Source of the DNA: Phyllosticta citribraziliensis
Taxonomy: Eukaryota
NCBI RefSeq assembly: GCF_038025025.1
Contig: NW_027117341.1
Coordinates: forward strand, 1,364,001 to 1,428,000
Length of the DNA: 64,000 nt
Reading direction: 5' to 3'
Both the position numbers and the translations under genes were made by a program. A model generated the notes under the pieces. It saw nothing but the letters and a program-made list of their open reading frames with translations. It was not told where the DNA came from and did not search any database. This document shows, piece by piece, positions 9,773 through 41,116 of the stretch (the first letter of the stretch is position 1; the number at the start of each line of letters is the position of its first letter).

Positions 9773-12700
9773 ATGAAGGTAGATTCTCTGACATGGGCCG
9801 CCATTGCCCTGTTGTCGTTTCAGGGGGTCGTCGCCGAAGCCGCACCCGCTCAAGCTAGGAGGGACGCTCCGAAAAAGCCAAAGTACTATTTTCCGAGACA
9901 TGTCAAGCGTTTCACCAACACCACGACGCCCATCTCGACAGCTCCCGAGACCAATCCTCCGCCTACGACGAACCCGATTCAGACTTCGCGAACCGACCTT
10001 CAATCCATCTTGGAGAGCCTGTCGAAAACCGAGTTGGCCAGCATTCTGTCGAGCACACCAGCGTCGACTCCGACGCCACCTCAGCCAGAACCCGTCGTCC
10101 CAACGTCGAGCGTGAATTCCACCACTGAATTCGTCATTCCCGGGACTTCTGGAACCTCGACAATCATCGACCAAGCGTCCACGAATCAGGTCTCGCCCCC
10201 GGCAACTACTCCAGCCATATACACTCCGACTCCAACGACACCCATTCCCACGACTTCCACTCCGACCCCTGTAGAGACTTCTCCTGTATCGTCTTTCTCT
10301 GGGACCGGTAGCGCTAGCGTGCCCGTTATCCAACCGACGACGCCCAAGGAAGAAGAATCGAAGACGACCCCGACTGGTACTAGCACGCCCGTCAACAGTC
10401 CTCCGACTTCGTTCGTCGGCACCGGTAGCGTCACCGTTCCAGTTGTCAAGCCCACCCCGGAAGGATCTTCGACATCGGCTCTAGGTACCCCCGAAACTCC
10501 CAAGTCTTCCGTCACAGGAACCGGTGGCGTGTCTATTCCCATCGTCCAGCCGACGCCTGCGACCCCAGAGTCGTCTACAACTCCTACGCCAAAGGCCTCG
10601 TCTACGACCGGCACAGGAGGCATCCTGCAGCCCATCTTGACTCCCGTGGAAAGTCTCTTGGGCAGCAGCGGCATCGTTTCTCCTGTGACGAGCTTGCTCG
10701 GTACTGGTGGCATTTTGAGCCCAGTTTTGCAGCCAACTACGTCTTCGTCCCCCACTCCGGTCGAGACCAAGCCTGGCGAAACGAGCAAATCGAGCGCCGT
10801 TGGAACTGGTGGGGTCTCTAGTCCCACTGTTCTCCCTACGACACCCTCGTCTCAGACCCCGGCGATCGTCCCCACCCCTGGAACATCTGCAACAGGTACC
10901 GGCGGTGGCAATGTCCCCATTGTGCAGCCCACGAGCGGGGCCCCGTCGGTGCAAACACCAGGAAAGCAGTCTTCCACCGGCACTGGCATCATTGTTGGCC
11001 TTTCGACCATCATTGACAGCAGCAGCAGCAGCAGCAAACCCGGCACGCCTGGAACGCCCGCTCCGCAGGTTCCCCCCACTCCTACGTCCAGCTCTTCAAA
11101 TGGAGGAGGACTTCTTGGTGGCCTGACTTCTGAGCTTGGCAACGTGGGTACTGGCCTGAATTCTGTGCTCACGCCTCTGGCGACGCCGCTTGGTGGTTTG
11201 ACGTCAGAGATTGGATCTGTCGTGTCTCCTTTGACCTCAGAAATTGGATCCATCGTTACCCCCATTGCGACGCCTTTGTCGTCCCTCGTTGGGTCTGCGG
11301 GATCTGCCATCGAGTCGATTCTTACACCATCGAGCAAGCCTGCCGCCGCGACTCCTGGCCCTGCCACTGGTGCCACTGGTACCGAGACGAACGTCACGGC
11401 TCCCACTCCTGCGCCCACGTCGAGCGAGGGCCTTGGAATCATTCCCTTGCCTCTGACCAGCGAGCTGAGCTCCATTTTGTCTGGCGTCAACAGCATCGTC
11501 ACGAGCGCCGGCACTATCCTCACTCCAATCCTTTCTCCTCCGCCGGTTCCGACAGAGACTCAGGTGACGCCGTCCAGTATCGGATCGAAGACCACAGGCT
11601 CCCCCGACCTGCTCTCATCGCTCCTCGGAACCCCGTTGGTCTCGCTTCCGCTTCCACTGCCCACGACTCCAATCATCCCGCTCAGCTCGCCGACGACCGT
11701 CGACCTCTCGTCGCTCCTGTCCAGCTTGACTGAAATACCTGCCTCGTCTCAATTCACCCCTTCGTCGCAGCCCAAGCCAACACCAGTTCTCACCCCAACT
11801 CTTGTCAGCCCCGGCATTTCAACCAGCGTTACTCCTTCTGGAACCGCGCCTGTCATTTCACCCACTGAGACTATTACGCCTACAAGCACCAAGCTGCCGT
11901 CTCCCCCAACTACTCCCATCATAATTCCAACCGTTCCCTTTTCGGAGACTTTGATCACGCCAACCCCAACTACGGTGTCCAGCTCCAGCTCAAGCTCTTC
12001 GGCTGTGGTAGTCGTTCCCCCGGTCCAGACCTCCTCTTCGGTTGAGGTTCCGTCAACGACGCTGGCCCCCACCACCACCAGCCCGACCACCTCTGCCACT
12101 CCGGTCTACTCAATCGTTCCCACGGGCACGGACAGTGCAACCACCTATACCGTTGCCACCAGCATCGTCTTCGACCCCTCGACTACGGGTACATCCTCTG
12201 CTGCACCTTCGTCCACGTCTACCGTCTACCCCAAGTTCATTGCTCCTCCAGGAGGCATGCCGGAGCAGCCGGCCAACAGCACCGAGATCCAAATTGGGTT
12301 CAAGCGCGGTTTCAACTGGCCGTTTGTTGTTCAGCACGCAGACACGACTGGATGGCAACTTACCACCTACATGCCCATTGCTGTTGCTGATGGTTTGGGA
12401 ATTTCTCGGGACAAGGTCAAGACCGTCACTCTGACTTCTTACAACACTACGGAGAAGCTGGGCTACGTGTCTACCTTGGTCCTGATGTACATTCCGACCG
12501 AGCTTGTGGACACGCTCCACCTCGATCTTTTGAACACCAACTCGGCCATCTACAACAACAAGGACGCTTCGCTAGGGGACACCATCAACTTCCTGTGCAG
12601 CTTCATCGACCCAACGTTCCCCATCCTCGCCGGCGATTTGAGCGGCCTCACAGGATCGGGCAACTCTGGCAGCGGCTCCTCGTCTAAGAACGGTGGCAGC

Positions 12701-13093
12701 AACAACAACGATGACGGCAACGGCAGTGGTGATCCCATGAGCGGCAGCAAGGCCAGTACTGGTGTGAACCTTACGGCCATGGGTGTCGCTATGGGCACCA
12801 TTGCTGGTGTTTCCGTGTACGGAGCCGGTATGATCTTTGTCGCTCGCCGCTACAAGAACAAAAAGGCAAGGCACGAGCGTTCAAGCTCTGTCCCTTCTTC
12901 AGGTGGCGCTGCTGGCCTCGGCTACGGTTCTTCGGGCAGTGGTCCTTGGATGTCTGGAGCCAGAGGAGGTCGCAACACGCCTGGTGGTAGAAACAGTCGA
13001 GGAAGCAACCAGAGCAGCAGCAACGGCCGAAGCGTACGAACCGCCCAGATTTCCGCCCCCGTCATGGCCGAGAACTCGCTGGGCTGGAACTAA
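9773..13093 (+). CDS. MSB2: Msb2/Hkr1-family signalling mucin, 1106 aa, intronless CDS
   Basis: N-terminal signal peptide, long S/T/P mucin region, HMH-like domain (IQIGFKRGFNWPFVV...), one TM helix (AMGVAMGTIAGVSVYGAGMIFVA) followed by RRYK, and the typical tail RTAQISAPVMAENSLGWN. Confidence 0.92.
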   Translation: MKVDSLTWAAIALLSFQGVVAEAAPAQARRDAPKKPKYYFPRHVKRFTNTTTPISTAPETNPPPTTNPIQTSRTDLQSILESLSKTELASILSSTPASTPTPPQPEPVVPTSSVNSTTEFVIPGTSGTSTIIDQASTNQVSPPATTPAIYTPTPTTPIPTTSTPTPVETSPVSSFSGTGSASVPVIQPTTPKEEESKTTPTGTSTPVNSPPTSFVGTGSVTVPVVKPTPEGSSTSALGTPETPKSSVTGTGGVSIPIVQPTPATPESSTTPTPKASSTTGTGGILQPILTPVESLLGSSGIVSPVTSLLGTGGILSPVLQPTTSSSPTPVETKPGETSKSSAVGTGGVSSPTVLPTTPSSQTPAIVPTPGTSATGTGGGNVPIVQPTSGAPSVQTPGKQSSTGTGIIVGLSTIIDSSSSSSKPGTPGTPAPQVPPTPTSSSSNGGGLLGGLTSELGNVGTGLNSVLTPLATPLGGLTSEIGSVVSPLTSEIGSIVTPIATPLSSLVGSAGSAIESILTPSSKPAAATPGPATGATGTETNVTAPTPAPTSSEGLGIIPLPLTSELSSILSGVNSIVTSAGTILTPILSPPPVPTETQVTPSSIGSKTTGSPDLLSSLLGTPLVSLPLPLPTTPIIPLSSPTTVDLSSLLSSLTEIPASSQFTPSSQPKPTPVLTPTLVSPGISTSVTPSGTAPVISPTETITPTSTKLPSPPTTPIIIPTVPFSETLITPTPTTVSSSSSSSSAVVVVPPVQTSSSVEVPSTTLAPTTTSPTTSATPVYSIVPTGTDSATTYTVATSIVFDPSTTGTSSAAPSSTSTVYPKFIAPPGGMPEQPANSTEIQIGFKRGFNWPFVVQHADTTGWQLTTYMPIAVADGLGISRDKVKTVTLTSYNTTEKLGYVSTLVLMYIPTELVDTLHLDLLNTNSAIYNNKDASLGDTINFLCSFIDPTFPILAGDLSGLTGSGNSGSGSSSKNGGSNNNDDGNGSGDPMSGSKASTGVNLTAMGVAMGTIAGVSVYGAGMIFVARRYKNKKARHERSSSVPSSGGAAGLGYGSSGSGPWMSGARGGRNTPGGRNSRGSNQSSSNGRSVRTAQISAPVMAENSLGWN

Positions 13094-34643: not shown

Positions 34644-37600
34644 CTACCCGACTCTTCTGCCATCCATCTGCAATTCCACACCCGCCTCGCCCATTCTCGC
34701 ACTCAGCACCGACCTTTTCGCACTGCCCTCGTGTTCATCATCACCGACCGCGACGCCCTGCGACGCCAGATGCTCACTGTGAGTGATGACGATGATGTGG
34801 CTGACCCTGGTATCAGCCATGAAATCGCACCACCGCGCGACGGCCGTCTGGCCGGCAACGTCGAGGCTGTCGAACACCTCGTCGACGAGCATGTACCTCG
34901 CGCGGTGCGGCGAGCGCGCCTGGCCGACGTACAGCAGCGCGAAGAGCAGGGCCAGGTCGATGCGCTTGCGCTCGCCGCTGCTGCGCTTGCCGTAGGACAG
35001 GGCGGCGTTGACTGATAGAGAGCTGTCGAGGGCGGCGCTCGCAGAGGCGGCTTCGTCGTCCTCCCCTTGCTGGCCCGCCGCTTCCGTCTCGGCTGCGGAC
35101 TCGTCGCCGACGAAGAGGGAGCGCAGCATGCCTGTCGTGAGGGCGCTGGCGTGGCGGCTGTTCTCGAACAGAATGGCGAGAACCTGCGTCGTGGTGGAGT
35201 TGAGTTCGGCGAGAGACTGCTTCAACACAAACTCACGGAAAGTGTGGGAGGAGGAGGACGTGGCTGGAGAGGATGCCGTCGCCGTCGACGCCGAGGCGGA
35301 CGAAGACACACGGCGGGTCTTTTGCTGTGCGAGTGCTGCGGCCCAGAAGTCGAAGATGTCTCGGGTTGCAGCAAGTGAAGCCATATCGTCGAGAAGTGCA
35401 TCACGATCAGCCTCCAGCTTTCGCAGTTCATCTGATTCCGTCTCGATGATCTGGCCATAGGTAGCGGCCTTTTCAGCACTGACCCGAGCAGTGGCCTGGA
35501 GCTCTCTGAGGCTCGCCTGCTTGGCAGAGTAGAGTTCCTTTTGGCCCTGAAGATCGACCAGGGTACTGAGGGCTGCATTCAAATGTGCCGGAATCGCCTT
35601 GGCTTGATCTGCAGAAACCTCTTTGAGGCTAGACTGCACATGCTCTTCCGAGATGTCTTTCTCGGTACCTATCTGTCGATGGATACTAGACTCGGTCCTG
35701 AGAATATCCAATTGATCCAGATCTCGTTGTTTCTCTCGTCTCTGTTTCTCTATATCTTCCAAGGACGTGCGGTAGGCTTGAAGCTGTTGATCTTTTCTGG
35801 CCTGGGCTTCCTTTCGCGCGTCCGCACCCGTCAGGTTTCCCAACCAAGCAGAGACTTTGTGCAATACTGTCAACAGCCCCCTCATTGTAGCCCTCATCAC
35901 ACGTTGTCCTTGTTTCAGAGACGACGATTGTTGCTGGGACAAAGAGTCCAGGCTAGCATCGGCAGAGTGCAAATAGCGTTGCATCCTCGTAAGCTTGCCC
36001 AGAAGCCAGCTGAAGAGTATCGTGGTGGCACGGTCGTCTGGTTTCACATCAAGCTCTGCATCTATAGAAACCTTCTGAGCAGAAAGCTGTGAGTGCTTGA
36101 CTTCCAGATTTGCGAGCTGCTGTTGTACTGCTTGGCTCTTTTGTTGCATGGTCGCCCGAGCTTCTTCGAACGCCATTCGAATATCTGCGAGTCTGTTATA
36201 CTGCATTAGGGCCTCCACTTGTTGCTGAGCCGCGCTGGTCTTATCGTCGAGAAGCTTCGACTGAGTCTGGAGTTCTTCGAGATCTTTCTGCCTCTGGTTG
36301 GCATGTTGGGAGTCGTCCTCCAGTTTCTTCCTCGCAGCTTCGAGTTGCCTGATATGATTCTGCATATGGTTCATGGTCTTGTCTAGTCCGTCAATTTTGG
36401 ACTGCAGCTCACTCATGTCCCCTCCGAGCTCGCGCAACATGTGGCGAGCGGTGCTGGCGCAGCGATCGAGGACCTCCAGTCCCAAAACCGAGAGGATCAG
36501 ATCCCGGCGTTGGGCAGGCGTCGAGCCAAGGAAGCTCGTAGCACTTTCGTTGCCCAGCACGACCGTCCTGATGAAGGTGTTGTAGTTGACACACAACAGC
36601 TCGTCGATGGCTGACTGGGTAGTGCGGGCATCAGCTTTCTCAAACTCTGGCAGAACTTCTCCCTCCCGCTCAACAATCGTTCTGTTGCCGAATTCCTTAT
36701 GTTTGCGGAACCTCGTAATAGCGTAGCCGTTCTCAAATTCCATGCGTACACTGCAGTCTCGCTTTGCTTTGTCGTTCACAACGTCATTGGCGCCGAGTCC
36801 GCTTCGGAGGCAGCGCCCGAACTGGCACCACACGATGGCCTCGACCAATGTGCTTTTGCCTGACCCGTTCTCACCAACCAGGAAAGTGAGGCCGCGTTTG
36901 ATGTCTGTTTCGAAATTCAAATGGATTGTAGATTGGATGCCCAGAAAGTTCGTTATGGTCAACGAACGAGGTCTAGCATCGAAGATAGAGGGAGACCTGA
37001 GGTTGTCCTTGGTCGCTGACCCCACGGTACGAGCCTCTTGGCCACTTCCATCAGTATTTCGTGACGGCAATATGCTTTGGTAGCTCAGAACCTCCGCCTG
37101 GCTCTCTCCGGGCGCTCGGGTCCCCTCCTCTGCTTGCTCATTCGCTCCGACTTCCAATAGTCTTTGGCCCACCTGCAGTAACAAGTCTCGGGACTGCTCG
37201 AGCGACTTGTTCAGGTCGAGAGCAGCCACATACCGTGTGGCCTGCTCCCAGACATCGACGGGTTGGGACTGAGATAGATCAGGAGCCAACACCGAGCCAA
37301 CCATGTCTGCTGCGGCGTTTGGCTCGCCAGGTGTAGCCTCGACTACATCGCCCCCCGACTCGAGATTGGCTTTTGCGGCAGAGATATCGCTGGCAGGCGT
37401 CGAGGTGCCCAGTCCCTGTAAGATGGCCGTGCTCTGGAGTCTGGGTGCCAGAGGACTCCAGCTCCTGATACTGCGGGCGCCGAAAGAAACGAGCTTGTCC
37501 CTGGCAGCAGCGTACCTAAACCGTGTAAGGTCGCCGAGAAGCATGACATGCCTGCCACGAAGGACCTCAGGGTCAACAGCTCCGTCGAGAACCTCATCCA

Positions 37601-38462
37601 CACCCACGGTGATGAAACCCACTCCATGCGGATTCACGATGAGCTCCTGGTCCAGGGTTTCAGGATCCAGCAGGATCACCCCGCGCTGCTCGTCCCATAA
37701 ATCTGCCCAGGTCAACTGTAGCGGCGAGCCCACATACGTCACACTCCCACGCATACAGGCTTCCTGTGTAACATGCTGGGCCCTTCCAGAGGCAGGTTCC
37801 GTGAGTGAAGCCTGGAGGATAGTCTGATGGCAGTGGAAGTGACCCGTAAAGGTCCTGGCCAAGGACGCGAAATAGCCCGGCCCAGTCAGCCCGTGGTAAG
37901 CAACAGACCGAGTCCTGTGGCTAGTGGTGTCGGAGCCGGGTTGAACAATGTGGCGTTGCGTAATGGCCCGATGCAGAGCAAGGTGTGCGAATGCGACCGT
38001 GTCGGCAGCATCACGTAGGTCCAGGCCAGCGACGGCATCAGTCAGTGTGCTCTGGTCCTCGCGGAAGGGCAGCATCAGCACACGACGGCCATCCCACACA
38101 TGGGAGCTCACGTCCCAGTGCAACTGGACGGCGGGCGCAGCCAGGCGCAGTGCGTCGAGGGCAGTGGTAGCATTGCTGTGGTCGCGGCGGTAGGCCAGGT
38201 CATGGTTTCCCAGGAGGACATGGACGTGAGGCACTTTGGCGTCATGTATTATGGATTCGAGGAAGCGGTAGCAAGAGGAGAGCACGTGAGTGGGCTGGTT
38301 GGACCGGCTCGTCAGGAGATCGCCGCACACCACAACGCGGTGCACCCTGTGCTGGGCGGCGATGGAAGTGATCCAGGCCGCCGTTTGAGCGATGCGATCC
38401 AGGTCATGATGTTTGAAGTGGATGTCGGCCAAGAGCAGCCATTTAAGCTTTGCGGAGCGCAT
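34644..38462 (-). CDS. Fused Mre11/SbcD-like metallophosphoesterase nuclease + Rad50/SbcC-like (SMC-type) ABC ATPase, 1272 aa, intronless
   Basis: Nuclease motifs ADIH, CGDL, LGNHD, AFAH, TGHFH and YVGSP. ATPase motifs: Walker A GENGSGKST (~aa 530), coiled coils, signature RSSGERKR, Walker B/D-loop YMLVDEVFDSLD (~aa 1190) and H-loop IVITHS. Confidence 0.9.
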   Translation of the reverse strand: MRSAKLKWLLLADIHFKHHDLDRIAQTAAWITSIAAQHRVHRVVVCGDLLTSRSNQPTHVLSSCYRFLESIIHDAKVPHVHVLLGNHDLAYRRDHSNATTALDALRLAAPAVQLHWDVSSHVWDGRRVLMLPFREDQSTLTDAVAGLDLRDAADTVAFAHLALHRAITQRHIVQPGSDTTSHRTRSVAYHGLTGPGYFASLARTFTGHFHCHQTILQASLTEPASGRAQHVTQEACMRGSVTYVGSPLQLTWADLWDEQRGVILLDPETLDQELIVNPHGVGFITVGVDEVLDGAVDPEVLRGRHVMLLGDLTRFRYAAARDKLVSFGARSIRSWSPLAPRLQSTAILQGLGTSTPASDISAAKANLESGGDVVEATPGEPNAAADMVGSVLAPDLSQSQPVDVWEQATRYVAALDLNKSLEQSRDLLLQVGQRLLEVGANEQAEEGTRAPGESQAEVLSYQSILPSRNTDGSGQEARTVGSATKDNLRSPSIFDARPRSLTITNFLGIQSTIHLNFETDIKRGLTFLVGENGSGKSTLVEAIVWCQFGRCLRSGLGANDVVNDKAKRDCSVRMEFENGYAITRFRKHKEFGNRTIVEREGEVLPEFEKADARTTQSAIDELLCVNYNTFIRTVVLGNESATSFLGSTPAQRRDLILSVLGLEVLDRCASTARHMLRELGGDMSELQSKIDGLDKTMNHMQNHIRQLEAARKKLEDDSQHANQRQKDLEELQTQSKLLDDKTSAAQQQVEALMQYNRLADIRMAFEEARATMQQKSQAVQQQLANLEVKHSQLSAQKVSIDAELDVKPDDRATTILFSWLLGKLTRMQRYLHSADASLDSLSQQQSSSLKQGQRVMRATMRGLLTVLHKVSAWLGNLTGADARKEAQARKDQQLQAYRTSLEDIEKQRREKQRDLDQLDILRTESSIHRQIGTEKDISEEHVQSSLKEVSADQAKAIPAHLNAALSTLVDLQGQKELYSAKQASLRELQATARVSAEKAATYGQIIETESDELRKLEADRDALLDDMASLAATRDIFDFWAAALAQQKTRRVSSSASASTATASSPATSSSSHTFREFVLKQSLAELNSTTTQVLAILFENSRHASALTTGMLRSLFVGDESAAETEAAGQQGEDDEAASASAALDSSLSVNAALSYGKRSSGERKRIDLALLFALLYVGQARSPHRARYMLVDEVFDSLDVAGQTAVARWCDFMADTRVSHIIVITHSEHLASQGVAVGDDEHEGSAKRSVLSARMGEAGVELQMDGRRVG

Positions 38463-39764: not shown

Positions 39765-41116
39765 ATGATACGCAACAAAAGCGCACTGAGGAAGCCGACC
39801 CGCCTTCCGAATTTCAAACCCTTGACCCGCTCAAAGGCACGCAAACGAGATGTATTCCCTCTCTTCGAACTCCCTGCCGAACTTCGCCTGCAAATCTATG
39901 AGTATGCGTTGCCGAACGCTCGATCTTATGGCCCCGTCGCAAGGAATCCTTGTTTGAATAAAGGCATTCTTTGCTTGCACCAGGAAGAGAAAAAGAGCAA
40001 ATGCCCTAAGGGCTTTGTGGCGTTGATGACAACCAACCGCACTGTGTATCATGAGACGCTCGAGGTTCTCTACAGCTCTCGGCTGCAAAATGATCCAACA
40101 ATGGTCCAAATGGATGTTGGCGACGATTACATTCGAATTCGAGGCTACGAAATCTTCTGCGCCAAGCATCACGCCTTCGACAAAGACATCGAAGGAATAT
40201 TCCCCCACATGCGTCATGTTGAGCTACGCGTCCATGCCTTCTGCAATCCATTCCCAGAAGACGACGAATTTGGCGATGCCGAACCTGTTGACGAGCTACA
40301 GCTGGCACGACGGAAATGCCTGAGAGGCAACTTGCGCTGGGTGGCTTCCCGGTTGAGACAAGTCAAGTCTCTGTCCAGCATGGTAATCCGGCAGGTCGAC
40401 TGGGAGTTCAATGACTGGCATGAATGTGACCCTGATGATCTCTTCGAAGATTTGGATTTCATCCTCAAGCCGTTGAGGGTCATCACTTCCCTGGAAAAGG
40501 TCGAATTCGGAGACCCTGCTGCCCCTGTCTATTGGAATGGGCTTTTCCGCTGCGAATGCTTCCTGGAGCGCGACGACGAAGATAGGGGAGCGTTCGATGT
40601 ATGCAAGGACTTCGAGCGTCGTTTGAAGAAGCGCATGACCAGCAAGAAGCTGGTGAAGGAGGAGCCAGAACTTTTCAGCCTCTATGATGATTTCGTCCAC
40701 AAGCTCAAGAAGTGCGAGCTGTCAGGTACGAACATTGATACCAAGGATCTCTTCTCAAAAGCATTGGACTTCAGGGACGAGGGCAAAGTCAAGGCCTTCA
40801 GCTCGCTTATGGACAAGTTCGCAAATCAGTTCCAAGATGAGGTCGAACAGAGGCTGGAGCTTTATGATGAGATCGAATCCGTCGTTGACAAAGCAAACTT
40901 CATCCAGGGACTGGCCCCTGAACCCTCCGAGTGAGTGAGTGTATCTGGAAACGTCTATGGAGACATGCTAATACCAGCATGTGTAGGAGCAGCTCCAGAT
41001 CTGCATCGCCTTCACTGGCAGAGGAAGAGGAGCTACGTGCAGATATTGAAGGCGAATGGGACTCGGAATCGAGATTGGCCGACGAATGGGGCCTTGATGG
41101 AAGTGCTAGCGATTAG
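39765..41116 (+). CDS. F-box-like hypothetical protein (paralogue B)
   Basis: ORF 39765-40934 with FPLFELPAELRLQIYEYALP. A probable intron from 40931 (GTGAGT...GCTAAT...AG at 40977 or 40986, same frame) extends it to the stop at 41116. An upstream intron-like element lies at 39697-39756. Confidence 0.75.

Follow-up and report, generated by a model that had tools for sequence, protein, structure and literature searches.

The stretch of Phyllosticta citribraziliensis DNA analysed here (contig NW_027117341.1, positions 1,364,001 to 1,428,000; 64,000 nucleotides, hereafter the window) carries on its reverse strand a gene whose product joins an N-terminal Mre11/SbcD-like nuclease to a C-terminal Rad50/SbcC-like ATPase in a single chain (Table 1). 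The gene is listed among the open reading frames (ORFs) of the window as one unbroken, ATG-started frame, and its product can be aligned colinearly over its whole length, M1 included, with homologues of 1130-1320 aa (alignment A1, 26 family members; a larger alignment, A2, holds 64 rows). In this sense the gene is intronless, as an earlier note on this DNA had described it. A Pfam scan of the protein returned 12 families at E<=1, among them Metallophos (residues 9-91, E 5.6e-6), AAA_23 (500-734, E 1.6e-15), SMC_N (across 501-1235, E 1e-14) and, under the family cut-off, SbcC_Walker_B (1156-1209, E 9e-4); Mre11_DNA_bind and Rad50_zn_hook were not among the 12. The bacterial sbcc model of NCBIfam (TIGR00618) matched at E 6.9e-25 with 87 bits against a cut-off of 478, indicating that the protein is not an equivalog, and the archaeal Rad50 models matched at 2.6e-19 or weaker.

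Table 1. Position of the fused gene and of its predicted regions in the window.
Feature	Residues	Window position	Strand	Basis
Whole ORF (1272 aa plus stop codon), fused Mre11/SbcD-like nuclease and Rad50/SbcC-like ATPase	1-1272	34644..38462	-	ORF list, family scans, 229 homologues with like layout
Phosphoesterase core and capping domain	1-336	37455..38462	-	A1 motifs, AlphaFold2 (AF2) model, Foldseek
Disordered linker with clade-conserved motif LG-x-S-x-PASD at 351-359	337-401	37260..37454	-	Predicted local distance difference test (pLDDT) 22-31; A1 and A2 conservation
Helix-loop-helix where the Mre11 Rad50-binding domain sits	404-446	37125..37253	-	AF2 models
ATPase N-lobe (Walker A 530-538, Q-loop position N638)	497-662	36477..36974	-	Pfam, A1, Rad50 alignment
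Antiparallel coiled coil (out 663-800, back 885-1044), helical apex 814-874 without CxxC	663-1044	35331..36476	-	AF2
ATPase C-lobe	1045-1272	34647..35330	-	Pfam, A1, AF2

All five calcineurin-like phosphoesterase motifs that the earlier note had read in the N-terminal half (D-x-H, GD, GNHD/E, H and GH-x-H) are present. Their residues are invariant or nearly so in A1 (D13, at least 90%; H15; G47-D48; G85-N86-H87-D88; H160; G207-H208-x-H210) and, together with the catalytic residues of the ATPase, are also kept across three clades of fused proteins of 22, 23 and 31 rows. An AF2 model of residues 1-500, built with 64 homologues, has a mean pLDDT of 64.8, with most 10-residue blocks of the core at means of 70-96 and low-confidence loops at 164-192 and 220-230. 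Searched against the PDB with Foldseek, this model matched Mre11 or SbcD in 30 of the 30 rows shown (to rank 50) over 340-490 aligned columns; the best of these was T. maritima Mre11 (4nzv_B, E 1.1e-13), with S. aureus and E. coli SbcD close behind and the S. pombe and human Mre11 proteins at ranks 44-50. Together with Pfam and A1, these matches uphold the original description of a single-chain SbcD/Mre11-SbcC/Rad50 protein with intact catalytic motifs. An organellar role, also suggested at that stage, is unlikely, because nuclease motif I begins at residue 13 and leaves no space for an N-terminal presequence.

The two halves were thought to be separated by a linker of about 150 aa. This holds for residues 337-401, which are disordered, but not for the whole segment, which also contains two confidently predicted helices (404-414 and 419-446) with a pLDDT of 68-80 when modelled without the ATPase and of 93-95 when modelled with it. 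By their position in the model, these helices look like the Rad50-binding helix-loop-helix of Mre11. Within the otherwise disordered and little-conserved linker, residues 351-359 (37386-37412, reverse strand) form the motif LG-T-S-T-P-A-S-D. In A1 two of its residues (G352, D359) are invariant and two more (P356, S358) nearly so, and in A2 G352 alone is invariant. The motif is missing from the consensus of the related clade of fused proteins that bear a zinc hook (see below), and it could be a docking or phosphorylation site gained in fungi.

The C-terminal half holds Walker A, signature, Walker B, D-loop and H-loop motifs divided by an antiparallel coiled coil, and the complete split ABC ATPase with coiled coils proposed from the sequence is recovered by Pfam, A1 and AF2 alike. 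The N-lobe aligns with residues 2-228 of T. maritima Rad50 (E 5.6e-16), while the C-lobe, which is broken up by Ser-rich and acidic disordered loops, carries the signature SSGERKR (1161), the Walker B motif LVDEVFD (1192), the D-loop and the H-loop ITHS (1226). Invariant or nearly invariant residues in A1 comprise G530/G533/G535-K536-S537-T538, S1161-x-G1163-E-R-K-R, D1194-E1195, D1198/D1201 and H1228. In the AF2 model of residues 396-1272 (mean pLDDT 79.8) both lobes are confident, and the coil consists of the long outward helix, two short apex helices (814-841 and 851-874) and the return helices. This coil is the least conserved region of the family, and its length of about 380 residues agrees with the claim that it is much shorter than that of Rad50. 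The top Foldseek match of the 396-1272 model was Chaetomium Rad50 (7zr1, E 1.4e-14), followed by MukB, Smc5/6, JetC and prokaryotic Rad50/SbcC proteins. Three cysteines that follow Walker A (C546, C551 and C570, in W-C-Q-F-G-R-C ... C-S-V; 36753-36827, reverse strand) are invariant in the clade of the window protein, and the consensus of the hook-bearing clade keeps the 'WC' and has a nearly invariant Cys further along.

Two hallmarks of Rad50 are missing from this ATPase. Residue N638 aligns with the Q-loop Gln of the Thermotoga and Methanocaldococcus Rad50 proteins, as expected from the reported lack of a canonical Q-loop Gln, and within the 22-row clade containing the window protein (the window clade) the position is occupied by His in 16 rows, by Asn in 3 and by Gln in 1. 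Moreover, the window protein has no Cys at all between residues 669 and 1211, and so no CxxC zinc hook. All window-clade representatives lack a CxxC, while a single one is present in mid-coil in most of the remoter fused forms, indicating that the zinc hook was lost in the window's clade. The loss of both the CxxC hook and the Q-loop Gln in this clade appears to be a new observation, and such a hook-less, Q-loop-variant subclade amounts to a natural experiment on which Rad50 features can be spared. Co-prediction of two copies of residues 770-960 (score 0.01, mark 0.32) weighs neither for nor against self-association of the apex.

A word-limited homology search retrieved 229 proteins, 120 of which were listed. 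Nearly all 229 are 1040-1550 aa long and have an identical Pfam set and the same fused layout. Among the matches listed, the closest named homologue is that of Phyllosticta citrichinensis (93% identity; Dothideomycetes, Botryosphaeriales, taxonomy checked), followed by those of Discula destructiva (72%; Sordariomycetes, Diaporthales, taxonomy checked) and Cryphonectria parasitica (57%). At about 40% identity, these matches include Trichoderma, Fusarium, Chaetomium, Podospora, Gaeumannomyces, Clonostachys, Colletotrichum, Grosmannia and others, and we take the genera from Trichoderma to Grosmannia to be Sordariomycetes. Phyllosticta apart, almost every named match is thus sordariomycete, and the window clade consists for the most part of Sordariomycetes together with Phyllosticta. 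The family is thus found in very many fungal genomes under automatic names, such as 'gp46 recombination endonuclease subunit' and 'nuclease SbcCD subunit C'. Discula destructiva has two paralogues, P0008 and P0037, that are 72% and 42% identical to the window protein. Two other gene models join the family to unrelated domains, FAS1 and HET (PF06985) in Colletotrichum karsti (P0098, 1906 aa) and a cytochrome P450 in Cladobotryum mycophilum (P0040, 1547 aa); both are probably annotation merges of adjacent genes, the HET neighbour being perhaps of interest.

An exhaustive HMMER search with residues 1-720 returned 10,818 proteins at E<=1e-3, 105 of them at E<=1e-30. Below the fungal clade, it revealed many further fused proteins of 1000-1500 aa at 28-38% identity. 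Named sources of these distant forms include the Pezizomycetes Rhizina, Tirmania, Terfezia, Kalaharituber, Ascodesmis and Peziza, on contigs of up to 2.3 Mb, as well as the ichthyosporean Creolimax, the choanoflagellate Salpingoeca punica, a Trinity transcript from EukProt (P0279) and proteins from IMG metagenomes. The zinc-hook-bearing sister group of the window clade takes in Pezizomycetes, Creolimax and a choanoflagellate, and the only hosts named for the 31-row fused clade are S. punica and IMG metagenomes. A pattern-limited scan of prokaryotic reference genomes found at least four weak relatives, the best among the matches listed being in a metagenome-assembled genome of Brevinema at 23% identity, a result that does not speak for an absence from prokaryotes. 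The 960 matching plasmid records aligned with the ATPase N-lobe only (25-28% identity), none of them giving a full-length match.

Single-chain proteins of this kind have been described before. Yoshida, Claverie and Ogata (2011; PMC3175470) describe, in the main text of their paper, fusions in which an Mre11-like region comes first and a Rad50-like one last, a description that the window protein fits, and report Mimivirus R555 and twelve others in a phage, plasmids, moss, slime moulds, a diatom and prasinophytes, the hosts including Bacillus phage 0305phi8-36, Clostridium kluyveri and Deferribacter plasmids, and Micromonas. According to the same text, the linker of these fusions is able to hold capping and helix-loop-helix domains, cellular hosts retain the canonical genes as well, the fusions fall outside the canonical clades, and a viral origin with lateral spread is proposed for them. 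The architecture is therefore not unprecedented, contrary to what the earlier note had implied: sporadic Mre11/Rad50 fusions in eukaryotes, viruses and plasmids were on record by 2011, and the window gene is a member of a large fungal branch of this published kind of protein. It shares with the 2011 fusions, as presented in that main text, the order of the two regions, a segment of capping plus helix-loop-helix length between them, non-canonical sequences, a sporadic distribution and a proposed viral origin. Compared with the published descriptions of the fusions, it differs in coming from a fungus and in belonging to a clade that has lost the zinc hook. The main text of PMC3175470 does not mention fungi ('fung' occurs 0 times). 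Our literature search, which extended neither to the supplements of that paper nor to those of surveys of horizontal gene transfer in fungi, where the family may be listed, found no paper on the fungal fused family and no biochemical characterisation of any eukaryotic fused Mre11-Rad50; as far as we could find, the fungal clades of fused Mre11-Rad50 proteins are new to the literature.

Both halves of the protein find their closest profile family among phage proteins of the gp47/gp46 type. By far the strongest match in PHROGs is phrog_77 ('SbcC-like subunit', 7.4e-60 over residues 500-1045), complemented by phrog_100 ('SbcD-like subunit', 9.8e-20 over residues 5-306). Set against the 7e-25 of TIGR00618, and together with the ATPase tree described below, these values substantiate the initial impression of a likeness to phage gp47/gp46 over cellular proteins. 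In sequence searches of the PDB, proteins of Thermotoga, Methanocaldococcus and E. coli matched at 6e-19 to 3e-15 and no eukaryotic Rad50 was found at E<=0.01. A tblastn search of 50,697 phage records yielded 3136 matching records, none over more than about half the query, with the best matches at 23% identity in T4-like cyanophages, where gp47 (nuclease) precedes gp46 (ATPase) with a small ORF between them, in the same order as in the window fusion. Iyer et al. (2021; PMC7824862) describe SbcC/SbcD as practically universal among jumbo phages.

Uncultivated viruses provided closer relatives. When IMG/VR was scanned with alignments built from the distant fused clades, 518 and 109 relatives were confirmed; a scan with the window protein alone gave one pattern match and no relative. 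At 11 of the 18 IMG/VR loci inspected, a nuclease ORF of about 350-380 aa is followed by an ATPase ORF of about 575-630 aa with a mid-coil CxxC. One locus (L085) instead carries a single fused ORF of 1164 aa, on the 220,489-bp contig IMGVR_UViG_3300049855_000348, which has direct terminal repeats and looks like a complete large viral genome. This ORF has a CxxC at residue 765, lies in a tight same-strand module with a DnaB-like helicase and a 5'-3' exonuclease (L085:1-15408), and matches the window protein in the ATPase N-lobe (36%, 9e-39), the nuclease (30% over 346 residues, 2e-32) and the C-lobe (45%, 2e-16). Locus L138 has a 987-aa frame that contains GNHD and a CxxC in mid-coil and lacks a canonical match to Walker A; it may be a second fused form. 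Language-model look-alikes in the ESM Atlas comprise clusters joining Metallophos to AAA_23, labelled 100% viruses (Uroviricota) in 5 of the 10 rows shown, which we treat as a lead only.

Phylogenetic inference places the window protein with these fused forms. In a FastTree of 76 fused proteins, the window clade has a support of 100 and lies within a 45-row group that includes the hook-bearing forms. In a tree of the ATPase (89 rows, 561 columns; IQ-TREE in quick mode, rooted on SMC), bacterial SbcC including that of E. coli splits off first, leaving a remainder with a support of 98, in which 25 unfused gp46-like rows (support 99; they include S-RIM2 gp46 and nine IMG/VR ATPases) are sister to 52 fused ones (support 99); the window clade is again supported at 100, and the L085 protein is sister to the metagenomic P0147 inside the hook-bearing group. 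The nuclease tree (68 rows, 322 columns) is congruent with the ATPase tree and gives the window clade a support of 100, although its deep nodes are poorly resolved; here, viral gp47-like proteins are mixed among the hook-bearing fused forms and E. coli SbcD lies outside on a long branch. The fused clade, whose members come from tailed-phage-like viral contigs and from scattered eukaryotes, is sister to the split gp47/gp46 proteins of T4-like phages, so that a viral source is the most likely origin of the eukaryotic genes. The window protein lies outside bacterial SbcC and E. coli SbcD, the canonical sequences being represented in these trees by bacterial proteins.

The same trees argue against a direct transfer from a virus to this fungus, as the earlier note had imagined, because the window copy sits inside a fungal clade beside sequences from Diaporthales. 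In all three trees it is sister to the Discula destructiva protein and then to that of Cryphonectria, with supports of 95-100, nested among Sordariomycetes. Different orders of Sordariomycetes are about 40% identical to each other in this family, against 72% between Phyllosticta and Discula, and this nesting and these identities are most simply read as an exchange between Phyllosticta and a fungus akin to Diaporthales, the latter being the probable donor. This position of the window copy inside Diaporthales, which suggests transfer from fungus to fungus, appears to be new, and if it holds it would add a further case of gene transfer between classes of plant-associated fungi. An approximately unbiased (AU) test did not reject the window clade and three Pezizomycetes as one clade (delta lnL 1.06, p-AU 0.50); a single early acquisition in Pezizomycotina is compatible with this result and is neither excluded nor shown by it, non-rejection being no demonstration of a clade.

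Comparison with characterised and viral systems further defines the protein. Like the gp47/gp46 pair of T4-type phages (cyanophage S-RIM2), it has the nuclease before the ATPase and a short coiled coil, and the phage ATPases are sister to the fused clade in the ATPase tree. The phages, however, encode the two parts as separate chains (about 350 aa and 575-590 aa), and a CxxC lies in mid-coil in 11 of 11 viral pairs checked, whereas the window protein is one chain with no hook, an extra helical apex and 23% identity. With the L085 ORF and its metagenomic relatives (P0143-P0161) it shares the single-chain fusion, 30-45% identity in three blocks and membership of the same 52-row clade, and with L085 also the motifs WC-x-FG after Walker A, GHFH-x-x-Q, GSPLQ and RS-x-G-x-RK; L085 differs in its CxxC and in belonging to a viral replication module and not to a eukaryotic chromosome. 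The folds of both halves, the catalytic motifs and the head architecture resemble those of SbcCD and Mre11-Rad50 structures (6s6v, 3qf7/3qg5, 3av0, 7zr1), in which, however, the subunits are separate and the coils long, and which possess both the zinc hook and the Q-loop Gln. In sequence the similarity is low, with E 3e-15 for the family profile against E. coli SbcC and E 5e-3 against SbcD. Compared with canonical eukaryotic MRE11/RAD50, the window protein is a single chain with a coil of only about 380 residues.

Taken together, these results make it likely that the ORF encodes an intact single-chain Mre11-Rad50 enzyme of phage type (gp47-gp46 / SbcD-SbcC-like), for which an activity and a dimeric architecture can be predicted. 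By homology with the solved SbcCD and Mre11-Rad50 complexes, two chains would pair through their N-terminal nuclease domains and their ATP-engaged ABC heads, and the helix-loop-helix would bind the foot of the coiled coil of its own chain, replacing the contact between the Mre11 and Rad50 subunits. Binding and hydrolysis of ATP would then clamp a DNA end or hairpin and offer it to the Mn2+-dependent nuclease, which would cut ends, hairpins or protein-blocked termini. The fused protein is a natural single-chain form of a central DNA-end-processing machine.

Several observations weigh against the interpretation of the gene as an intact, virus-derived enzyme acquired by transfer. The substitution of N638 for the Q-loop Gln is one, and since the zinc hook is missing too, ATPase kinetics and long-range tethering may differ from those of the Mre11-Rad50 complexes studied so far. 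The trees contain no canonical eukaryotic or archaeal Rad50 or Mre11, so that the placement outside the eukaryotic clade follows from the absence of eukaryotic Rad50 in the PDB sequence searches, and the best structural match of the ATPase model is a eukaryotic protein, Chaetomium Rad50. Quick and FastTree methods were used, with many compositional warnings and unresolved deep nodes, and most relatives are unnamed metagenome or SRA proteins, leaving host assignments sparse for the sister groups. The GC content at third codon positions (GC3) of the gene (0.66) is in the range of its neighbours (0.61-0.85), and its composition thus bears no sign of recent transfer. As to the type of virus, the L085 contig gave no match to the Terminase_6C or Terminase_6N models, while a second IMG/VR contig with a split pair (L055) does bear Terminase_6C; the capsid model of nucleocytoplasmic large DNA viruses was silent on L085, but so was the control, making this result uninformative. 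Finally, none of the four sequencing runs containing the locus is on record as RNA.

As to what an enzyme of this kind would do in the cell, the odds are roughly even between an accessory nuclease of repair or recombination and a factor that restricts foreign or extrachromosomal DNA. A genome-defence nuclease, possible if doubtful, would be a domesticated phage enzyme that recognises DNA of foreign or selfish origin, be it linear plasmids, DNA viruses, transposition intermediates or transforming DNA, and destroys its free ends or hairpins in the manner of bacterial SbcCD and SMC-type defence systems. The patchy fungal distribution, the two Discula paralogues, the fast divergence (about 40% identity among Sordariomycetes) and the transfer between classes suggested by the tree position are all typical traits of conflict genes, and the merged Colletotrichum model includes a HET domain. 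PADLOC models of defence ATPases also match the protein (mad3 5.4e-21, LmuB 1.7e-14, PbeC 1.7e-12), but these matches cover the ATPase only, are of the generic ABC/SMC-head kind and are far weaker than that to the SbcC-like phage family. No prokaryotic SMC/ABC-nuclease defence system (Lamassu, PARIS, Gabija, MADS) was the best match of the whole protein, and there is no partner or sensor gene nearby and no defence-like neighbourhood, the surrounding genes encoding COPB2, GH43, PIG-N, an Obg GTPase, Ccdc124 and transcription factors.

An accessory housekeeping role in repair or recombination, which we hold equally tentatively, would place the enzyme beside canonical MRX as a nuclease for hairpins, palindromes and blocked ends in nuclear DNA, and would have it inherited vertically since early in the history of Pezizomycotina and lost many times afterwards. 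The strong conservation of the catalytic motifs across the three fused clades, the ordinary chromosomal setting on a 2.5-Mb contig and the outcome of the AU test are all consistent with this. Against it stand the nesting of the window copy in Diaporthales, which contradicts the species tree, and the absence of the family from any other class of Pezizomycotina among the named matches, Phyllosticta apart, which would require many losses; the AU test, for its part, proves no clade. More speculatively, and with a rather low probability in our estimation, the protein could be a domesticated, hook-less, phage-derived nuclease of nuclear innate immunity in filamentous ascomycetes, moving between fungal classes (from a Diaporthales-like donor to Phyllosticta). 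The targets of such a nuclease, on the same slender likelihood, would be linear plasmids, DNA mycoviruses, transposon and Starship intermediates and transforming DNA with free, hairpin or protein-capped ends. Tractable hosts among the named homologues (Trichoderma, Fusarium, Podospora, Cryphonectria), which have one or two copies beside canonical MRX, make the role of an additional phage-type Mre11-Rad50 in a eukaryotic nucleus directly testable.

Fungi carry MRE11 and RAD50, and an origin of the protein in these resident genes, by recent fusion or duplication, would explain why the ATPase model is structurally closest to Chaetomium thermophilum Rad50 and why eukaryotic Mre11 structures occur among the nuclease matches. 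This origin is nevertheless very improbable, given that eukaryotic Rad50 fails to appear at E<=0.01 in PDB sequence searches in which prokaryotic proteins score well, that neither Mre11_DNA_bind nor Rad50_zn_hook is matched at E<=1, that the zinc hook is missing and the coil short, and that the best families are phage ones, with fused relatives on viral contigs. Least credible of all is an artefact, whether two neighbouring genes wrongly joined during assembly or annotation or a pseudogene in decay. We found no point in its favour, and it is contradicted by the unbroken 3.8-kb frame with invariant catalytic residues, by the like fused layout in the homologues listed, which come from independent assemblies and in many cases lie on contigs of Mb scale, and by fused transcripts in transcriptome-derived EukProt entries (Salpingoeca punica and the Trinity transcript P0279).

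Returning to the phage-type fused gene and its setting, the neighbours are ordinary fungal genes encoding coatomer beta-prime (COPB2), GH43, PIG-N, Ccdc124, an Obg-type GTPase at 30.0-31.9 kb, a 2EXR/DUF7730 protein and transportin, together with Zn2Cys6 and bZIP transcription factors. No Pfam match to a transposase, recombinase or reverse transcriptase was obtained in 23 of the 42 window ORFs of at least 200 aa, nor in 28 of the 74 stop-to-stop frames of at least 110 aa between 26 and 48 kb, and a search for flanking repeats gave nothing beyond short, chance-like matches. The divergent upstream neighbour (39765-40934, forward strand) encodes the 389-aa 2EXR/DUF7730 protein, which belongs to a fungal family of unknown function, and about 1.3 kb without a recognisable gene lies between it and the fused gene. 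Elsewhere in the window, an ATG-started ORF of 1106 aa (9773-13093, forward strand) has no Pfam match at E<=0.001 and an odd composition, with GC2 (0.63) above GC1 (0.50), and may accordingly be a low-complexity protein or a chance frame.

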